Shown here: in pieces, positions 27,513-27,791 of the stretch
How the letters are laid out: the number at the start of each line of letters is the position of its first letter
How positions within the stretch are numbered: position 1 is the first letter of the stretch
Origin: a virus
Taxonomy: Duplodnaviria > Heunggongvirae > Uroviricota > Caudoviricetes
Length of the DNA stretch: 31,156 nucleotides
Virus record (IMG/VR): IMGVR_UViG_2778261417_000015
Span: 1-31,156 of that record
Reading direction: 5' to 3' (one strand)
Program-made: the position numbers and the translations under genes
Notes under the pieces: model-generated
Seen by the model: only the letters and a program-made list of their open reading frames with translations
The model's database searches: none
Told to the model about the DNA's origin: nothing

Positions 27513-27791
27513 ATGAAAAAGTTAAAAGTCGAGAAGACTGGCTGCTGGGGAACGATTAACGGCGTATTCCAGCAACTGCCGGTTGGTCATGAGTTTGTTG
27601 CGGTTGATGTTCCGCCAGCTTTCGCTGGGCGCGTTTCAGTGGTTGGCGAAGTCGACGAGCAGGAGATTGAAGTCGCCACGCCAGGCGCCAACGATAAATC
27701 TGCAGAGCAGGCAGAGCAGGCAGAGCAGGCAGAGCAGGCAGAGCAGGCAGAGCAGGCAGACACCTCCGCTAAATCGAAAAAGGCGAAATAA
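27513..27791 (+). CDS. Small structural-region protein with (AEQ)5 repeat (92 aa)
   Basis: Intact ORF with AGGGAGAGAG RBS. Contains the in-frame 9-bp tandem repeat. Confidence 0.5.
   Translation: MKKLKVEKTGCWGTINGVFQQLPVGHEFVAVDVPPAFAGRVSVVGEVDEQEIEVATPGANDKSAEQAEQAEQAEQAEQAEQADTSAKSKKAK
27702..27751 (+). repeat. Perfect tandem repeat, 9-bp unit GCAGAGCAG, five copies plus a partial
   Basis: Direct reading of the sequence; in frame, encoding AEQAEQAEQAEQAEQ. Confidence 0.85.

Follow-up and report, generated by a model that had tools for sequence, protein, structure and literature searches.

The 31,156 bp of Caudoviricetes DNA analyzed here (positions 1 to 31,156 of IMG/VR virus record IMGVR_UViG_2778261417_000015; hereafter the window) contains a perfect 9 bp tandem array within a small gene of its head module, just downstream of the major capsid gene (Table 1). 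This array is very probably a slippage-driven coding variable number tandem repeat (VNTR) that encodes a disordered spacer of variable length in a head-module protein; the hypervariable copy number among related loci, the speed with which it changes and the homogeneity of the units at the DNA level all lead to this reading. The 9 bp units would be gained and lost by replication slippage or unequal recombination, and because the unit is 9 bp long every such change is in frame. The resulting acidic spacer, with one negative charge per Ala-Glu-Gln (AEQ) unit, would link a conserved N-terminal β-domain of about 55 amino acids to a lysine-rich KSKKAK end. Coding VNTRs in prophage genes are a known kind of feature; this one lies in an uncharacterized protein family.

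An exact search finds six contiguous copies of the unit GCAGAGCAG at bp 27702–27755, followed by a 5 nt partial copy (GCAGA). The initial annotation of this DNA had noted a perfect in-frame 9 bp tandem repeat beginning at bp 27702, and both Tandem Repeats Finder (TRF) and the exact search place the start there; its count of five copies, encoding (AEQ)5 and ending at bp 27751, was one unit short, as there are six copies, (AEQ)6, and the array runs to bp 27760. The array is translated as (AEQ)6 followed by A (residues 64–82), in the C-terminal context S-(AEQ)6-ADTSAKSKKAK. The 9-mer occurs nine times in the window, where 0.46 occurrences are expected, and none of 100 shuffled sequences reached nine, so chance is excluded as the source of the array. 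Three scattered copies of GCAGAGCAG lie elsewhere in the window, with no further partner, and TRF finds no second array of more than 2.5 copies across the 31 kb. The array is in frame with the 92-codon open reading frame (ORF) that contains it, and its unit length is a multiple of three; ORFs that cross it in other frames or on the other strand, with ACS, LLC and QSR repeats, are mechanical by-products.

Copy number was compared among 91 related loci taken from E. coli genomes, phage records, GTDB genomes and IMG/VR contigs, and tripeptide copies were counted in the 81 of these loci in which the gene is complete. It is far from invariant, ranging from 1 to 14: 12 loci each have one and two copies, six have three, four have four, eight have five, ten have six, nine have seven, four have eight, seven have nine, three each have ten and eleven, one has 12 and two have 14. 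In three more contigs the sequence stops inside the array, so that their counts of 14, 15 and 20 copies are minimum values (the last is locus L060). Arrays of 12 and 8 copies are present in complete E. coli chromosomes, and one homolog (P0106) has no AEQ unit at all. The frame and the C-terminus are retained in all 81 complete genes, which bears out the earlier proposal that the protein changes length in steps of three amino acids without frameshift. The length of the spacer appears to be only weakly constrained, with a span of about zero to 60 residues or more. Eight contigs stop within the array or where it starts (L007, L015, L042, L050, L056, L058, L060 and L063); the array probably breaks short-read assemblies, and long alleles are therefore likely to be under-represented or collapsed in the databases. 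These contig breaks are also an indirect hint that the array may be unstable within a single population or lineage. In a single homolog (P0121) a frameshift 5′ of the array causes it to be read out of frame as …QSRQSRQSRQ…; the probable explanation is a pseudogene or a sequencing error, not repeat slippage.

Closely related pairs of prophages indicate how rapidly the array turns over. Loci L002 and L065 differ at 1 nt in 3670 bp of flanking sequence and have eight and nine copies, respectively, and a unit marked by a CAA codon places the gain or loss 3′ of that unit; similarly, L069 and L072 have three differences in 3670 bp of flank and have six and nine copies. Near-identical pairs with only one or two copies show no copy difference, and this stability fits length-dependent slippage. 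As judged from these comparisons, copy number changes fast relative to point mutation.

In nearly all loci the array consists of identical DNA units, and this includes loci in which the unit itself has changed. Pure arrays of four other units are present among the relatives: 13 copies of CCTGAACAG (EQP) in a Leclercia genome, eight copies of GTAGAGCCT (VEP), and five copies each of CCGGAGCAG and CCAGAGCAA (both PEQ). By sequence comparison, different lineages have independently expanded mutated units, and their arrays have been homogenized in a process of concerted evolution. Since proline-rich units were among those expanded, the tract evidently does not need to be helical, in agreement with its predicted disorder. 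A single α-helix was considered as the form of the spacer and rejected, as other lineages have expanded units with proline and AlphaFold2 gives no helix.

The gene that carries the array is real. Its 57 N-terminal codons have a ratio of nonsynonymous to synonymous substitution (dN/dS) of ∼0.06 with dS of ∼1.1 among 66 distinct DNA versions, and this value shows that the translated product is under strong purifying selection. Residues 1–57 are almost invariant in the alignments, with G10, C11, W12, G13, P23, G25, H26, P34 and R40 completely so. Because of its Cys11, a lipoprotein or signal peptide was considered and rejected on inspection, as the protein has no hydrophobic leader or lipobox. 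AlphaFold2, run with a 40-sequence alignment, predicts a five-strand β-domain at residues 1–50 (predicted local distance difference test score, pLDDT, ∼90), whereas for residues 55–92 the pLDDT falls below 50 and no secondary structure is assigned; the AEQ tract is thus predicted to be disordered. The suggestion in the initial annotation that the repeat forms a variable linker agrees with this low pLDDT, with the toleration and expansion of proline-containing units and with the comparative copy-number data.

The protein belongs to an uncharacterized family. Its PHROGs matches are phrog_2288 (E = 1e-24) and, weakly, phrog_13988, both families of unknown function, and there is no match in Pfam even at E ≤ 10. 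A search of 5.8 billion proteins gave 193 homologs, all “hypothetical,” from Enterobacter, Klebsiella, Citrobacter, Raoultella, Kluyvera and E. coli, and a tblastn search of deposited phage genomes with the window protein and two remote homologs found only KO-TP1, Kp4856-1 and Kp4862-1. Searches of PDB sequences with the family profiles returned only chance matches (5h83 and 1ufr, E > 0.3), and the remote homolog P0127 alone gave none. Foldseek comparison of the N-domain model with PDB gave only E values of 3.7 or more, and in a Foldseek search of BFVD the best match (E = 1e-3) was an unnamed protein and matches to DUF7443 had E > 0.2. A literature search for AEQAEQAEQ found no publication.

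The more distant relatives show what the spacer joins. An exhaustive hidden Markov model (HMM) search of 1.84 billion cluster representatives with the N domain as query gave a few remote homologs of 35–57% identity; three other proteins returned by it (P0123, P0129 and P0135) are internally repetitive and were judged spurious on inspection. Each of the remote homologs retains the N domain and a lysine-rich C-terminus (for example KKKKGK, KKKKGR, KPKPQKDK and KGKTKTKSN). Between these two ends P0124 has no middle segment, P0122 has (EP)n, and P0126 and P0127 have an insert of 40–50 amino acids with a weak, sub-threshold match to the SAP domain, a DNA-binding motif (E = 0.017). The genes for the last two (L095 4001–4372 and L093 4001–4333, respectively) occupy the slot between the DUF6260 capsid and DUF7370 genes. 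Since the ends are kept and the middle segment varies widely, the conserved design of this family is a β-domain, a spacer of nearly any length and a basic end, and the AEQ array is one way to fill the spacer.

What such a three-part protein does may tentatively be sought in a comparison with λ gpFI, and a gpFI-like packaging or assembly tether or chaperone is the most economical guess, since both the gene order and the acidic linker have parallels in gpFI. The λ protein is a two-part, head-binding packaging chaperone encoded 3′ of the capsid gene (PMC13595911, PMC7889075, PMC4493119), and it has been described as bridging the procapsid, through binding to the capsid protein, and the terminase–DNA complex (PMC13595911, PMC7889075). 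Analogs of gpFI are present in other siphophages; in TP901-1 an analogous small gene is next after the capsid gene (PMC4493119). Like gpFI (PF14000, PDB 2LSM), the repeat protein is small, is encoded between the capsid and head–tail joining genes, and has two putatively functional ends separated by an acidic linker of variable length. The order decoration, capsid, repeat gene, DUF7370, two small ORFs, Neck1/tail completion and tail terminator in the window parallels D-E-FI-FII-Z-U in λ. Among gpFI homologs (λ FI at L092 2203–2601, and P0141–P0255) the acidic linker also varies in length by DDT units, with a gain of one such unit in P0170 (ELDDTDDTDDT). The conserved terminator-like hairpin between the capsid gene and the repeat gene also fits a gpFI-like role. 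By this analogy the β-domain would attach to the procapsid or to capsid protein and the basic end to DNA or the terminase–DNA complex, with the acidic repeat serving as a flexible leash between them. Such a protein would be expected in few copies or outside the virion, and not in the stoichiometric amounts of a decoration protein. If the analogy holds, the packaging-chaperone principle extends to a family without detectable gpFI sequence similarity.

Several results weigh against membership in the gpFI family. The two proteins share no sequence or profile similarity: Pfam gives no PF14000 match, E values up to 10 included, and hhalign gives a probability of at most 1% against both gpFI and a gpFI alignment. 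The gpFI fold 2LSM was not retrieved by the fold search. The domain order is also reversed, as the folded domain is N-terminal in the repeat protein and C-terminal in gpFI, and the second end is a 7-residue lysine-rich peptide in the former but a helical domain in the latter. There is a substantial chance that the role is neither gpFI-like nor virion-associated but something else.

Whether the protein might instead be a component of the virion, for example a decoration or cement protein or a neck-associated one, was also considered, and this appears rather unlikely. The acidic repeat would then form a variable arm, surface-exposed or projecting, and diversifying selection would act on the length and charge of this arm, perhaps because they affect adhesion or help the phage to evade host sensors. 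The gene does lie directly 3′ of the capsid gene in the head module, the high copy-number diversity and the independent re-expansion of units would suit such an arm, and the BFVD search gave a weak structural match with a “virion structural protein” of an Achromobacter phage, although its E value of 0.5 is not significant. However, the head module already has a dedicated decoration gene (phrog_766) 5′ of the capsid gene, and Pfam, PHROGs and PDB yield no match to decoration, cement or connector families. A further point is that the repeat gene lies past a conserved terminator-like hairpin, among low-copy neck genes, a position that may bear on its expression. Many loci have just one AEQ unit and P0106 has none, so a long arm is not needed. 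The idea of a structural or decoration protein in the initial annotation is not upheld, given the absence of a decoration-family match, the separate phrog_766 gene and the intervening hairpin; its placement of a small protein gene in the head region, by contrast, was right, as the gene lies between those for the major capsid and DUF7370 proteins.

A more elaborate form of the gpFI-like proposal, which is improbable, is that the tract is an evolvable leash whose length and charge tune the bridging of procapsid and DNA or terminase. Lineages would then adjust its length by slippage, for example after swaps of head or terminase modules, and length change may also serve escape from host sensors of core phage proteins. 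The conservation of the unit codons would in that case reflect selection to remain slippage-competent.

That codon conservation is one reason to consider a role for the array at the DNA or RNA level, either as a recombination hotspot that joins the head and neck/tail modules or as an mRNA element, with the AEQ tract as its by-product. The unit GCAGAGCAG is retained in 57 of 61 non-redundant loci (295 of 337 units), single-copy loci included, and its GCA GAG CAG codons have almost no synonymous variants, whereas neighboring synonymous sites are near saturation across lineages, neighboring third-codon positions have a mean diversity of 0.39, and the residues that flank the array are variable. 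Neutral slippage alone does not predict such conservation across lineages. The N domain, however, shows conservation of the same degree at about 20% of its third positions, so the anomaly is only modest as far as these alignments indicate. When loci are compared, the identity of the left flank often disagrees with that of the right, and a pairwise change-point scan first placed many pairs near the array. A head/neck mosaic junction at the array was nevertheless rejected, as only one of about nine independent, clean, recent breakpoints lies near it (at +80 nt) and the others range from −2055 to +1920. Moreover, other lineages expand different units, and beyond its three scattered copies GCAGAGCAG has no partner in the window. 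A DNA- or RNA-level role is therefore very improbable. Finally, a phase-variation switch of the repeat gene or its downstream neighbor, to which a hypermutable repeat within a gene directly 5′ of a translationally coupled gene (ATG at +2 nt in 68 of 81 loci) might point, is effectively excluded because a 9 bp unit cannot shift the frame, and the sole out-of-frame case, P0121, is due to a change 5′ of the array.

As a slippage-driven coding VNTR the array can be compared, through the literature and general knowledge, with other repeats of this kind. VNTR dynamics have been discussed (PMC5183578), and the Salmonella Typhimurium multiple-locus VNTR analysis locus STTR6 has been treated alongside Gifsy-1 prophage variants (PMC3901673). 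The array shares with coding VNTRs and STTR6 its short perfect units, prophage location, broad copy range, use in typing, and copy change that outpaces point mutation. It differs from STTR6-type VNTRs in that it has a 9 bp unit, is always in frame, lies inside a strongly conserved small gene of the morphogenesis module and has been re-seeded with mutated units in different genera.

At the protein level there are well-known low-complexity linkers, among them the Ala/Pro/Glu-rich linkers of 2-oxo-acid dehydrogenase E2 subunits and the (EP)n(KP)n spacer of TonB. They resemble the AEQ tract in their A/E/P/Q composition, predicted disordered or extended state, tolerance of length change and joining of modules, but they are usually degenerate at the DNA level, whereas the AEQ array is DNA-perfect and in active turnover. 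The Bacillus subtilis skin-prophage protein YqbF (PDB 2hjq) was compared as well. It is a small prophage protein of two modules whose gene neighbors that for the capsid protein, and its second module, of helix-extended-helix/SAP-like type, resembles the SAP-like insert of P0126 and P0127. The Foldseek match between YqbF and the N domain, the only hint of a link to gpFI, is not significant (E = 5.5, probability 0.08, TM score 0.40), and no sequence similarity between YqbF and the repeat-protein family was found.

These prophages amount to a natural linker-length experiment, in which the two ends are conserved and the number of units that separates them, in dozens of otherwise similar elements, runs from 1 to 20 or more; with this length series, the function of the head-module protein and its tolerance of tether length are easily testable. 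The array is also a VNTR typing marker for widespread prophages of Klebsiella, Enterobacter, Citrobacter and E. coli, with the practical caution that it probably disrupts short-read assemblies.

The window is a lambdoid siphophage or prophage of the Enterobacteriaceae, as its head and tail gene content and its early region, which resembles those of lambdoid Enterobacter, Klebsiella and phi80-type phages, both indicate. Upstream of the repeat gene are genes for terminase, portal, Mu-F-like head proteins, a DUF2213-type protein, decoration protein and capsid protein, and downstream are DUF7370, two small ORFs, Neck1/tail-completion, tail terminator and an Ig-domain tail tube protein. The DUF7370 product is presumed from its position and an N-terminal motif to be a head–tail adaptor.

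Table 1. Coordinates of the tandem array, the gene that contains it and nearby features in the window
Feature	Position	Strand	Evidence
Tandem array, period 9	27702..27760	+	TRF: 6.6 copies, 100% matches, score 118
Repeat gene, 92 aa, stop included	27513..27791	+	ORF list; phrog_2288 E = 1e-24; 193 homologs; dN/dS ∼0.06
Conserved N-terminal domain, residues 1–57	27513..27683	+	Alignments; AlphaFold2
Variable pre-array linker GANDKS, residues 58–63	27684..27701	+	Alignment; relatives have ADDKP, DNP, NDA
Remainder of D83 codon, TSA and Lys-rich KSKKAK, residues 83–92	27761..27788	+	Alignments, codon table; nearly invariant in nucleotide sequence too
Head decoration gene	25967..26428	+	phrog_766, E = 2e-43
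Major capsid gene	26425..27480	+	Pfam DUF6260 E = 1e-107, Major_capside; phrog_771
DUF7370 gene	27868..28248	+	Pfam DUF7370 E = 6e-42; phrog_786
Terminator-like hairpin AAGGGGC-UUCG-GCCCCUU and U-rich tract	27479..27501	+	Fold centroid −12.6 kcal/mol
Shine-Dalgarno-like GGGAGAG, 3 nt 5′ of repeat-gene ATG	27503..27509	+	Relatives have GGGAGAG/AGGAGAG

The hairpin 5′ of the repeat gene has a UUCG tetraloop and overlaps the capsid stop codon. It is nearly invariant in about 89 related loci and probably attenuates transcription or stabilizes the capsid mRNA; a consensus terminator scan did not detect it.

At the other end of the repeat gene, the final seven codons (bp 27771–27791; AAA TCG AAR AAG GCG AAA TAA) are nearly nucleotide-invariant among relatives, and in 68 of 81 loci the ATG of the next gene lies 2 nt past the repeat-gene stop; together these two features suggest that the sequence coding for the tail also serves the downstream gene, in ribosome binding or coupling. 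In the window a 23-codon ORF, MALREFDNPSKSRDELDEQIKGK, is inserted between the repeat and DUF7370 genes at bp 27796–27867, flanked at either end by an identical AAATAACCATGGC junction. It is missing in 68 of the 81 related loci and is present in L009, L055 and L057 with synonymous and conservative changes, and because of the nature of these changes it is probably a real, optional micro-gene. Farther downstream, a 57-amino-acid ORF (phrog_1261; bp 28248–28421) overlaps the listed start of the 140-amino-acid ORF at bp 28355–28777 (phrog_797). The phrog_797 alignment starts at residue 23 of the latter, and the listed GTG of this ORF therefore probably lies upstream of the true start.
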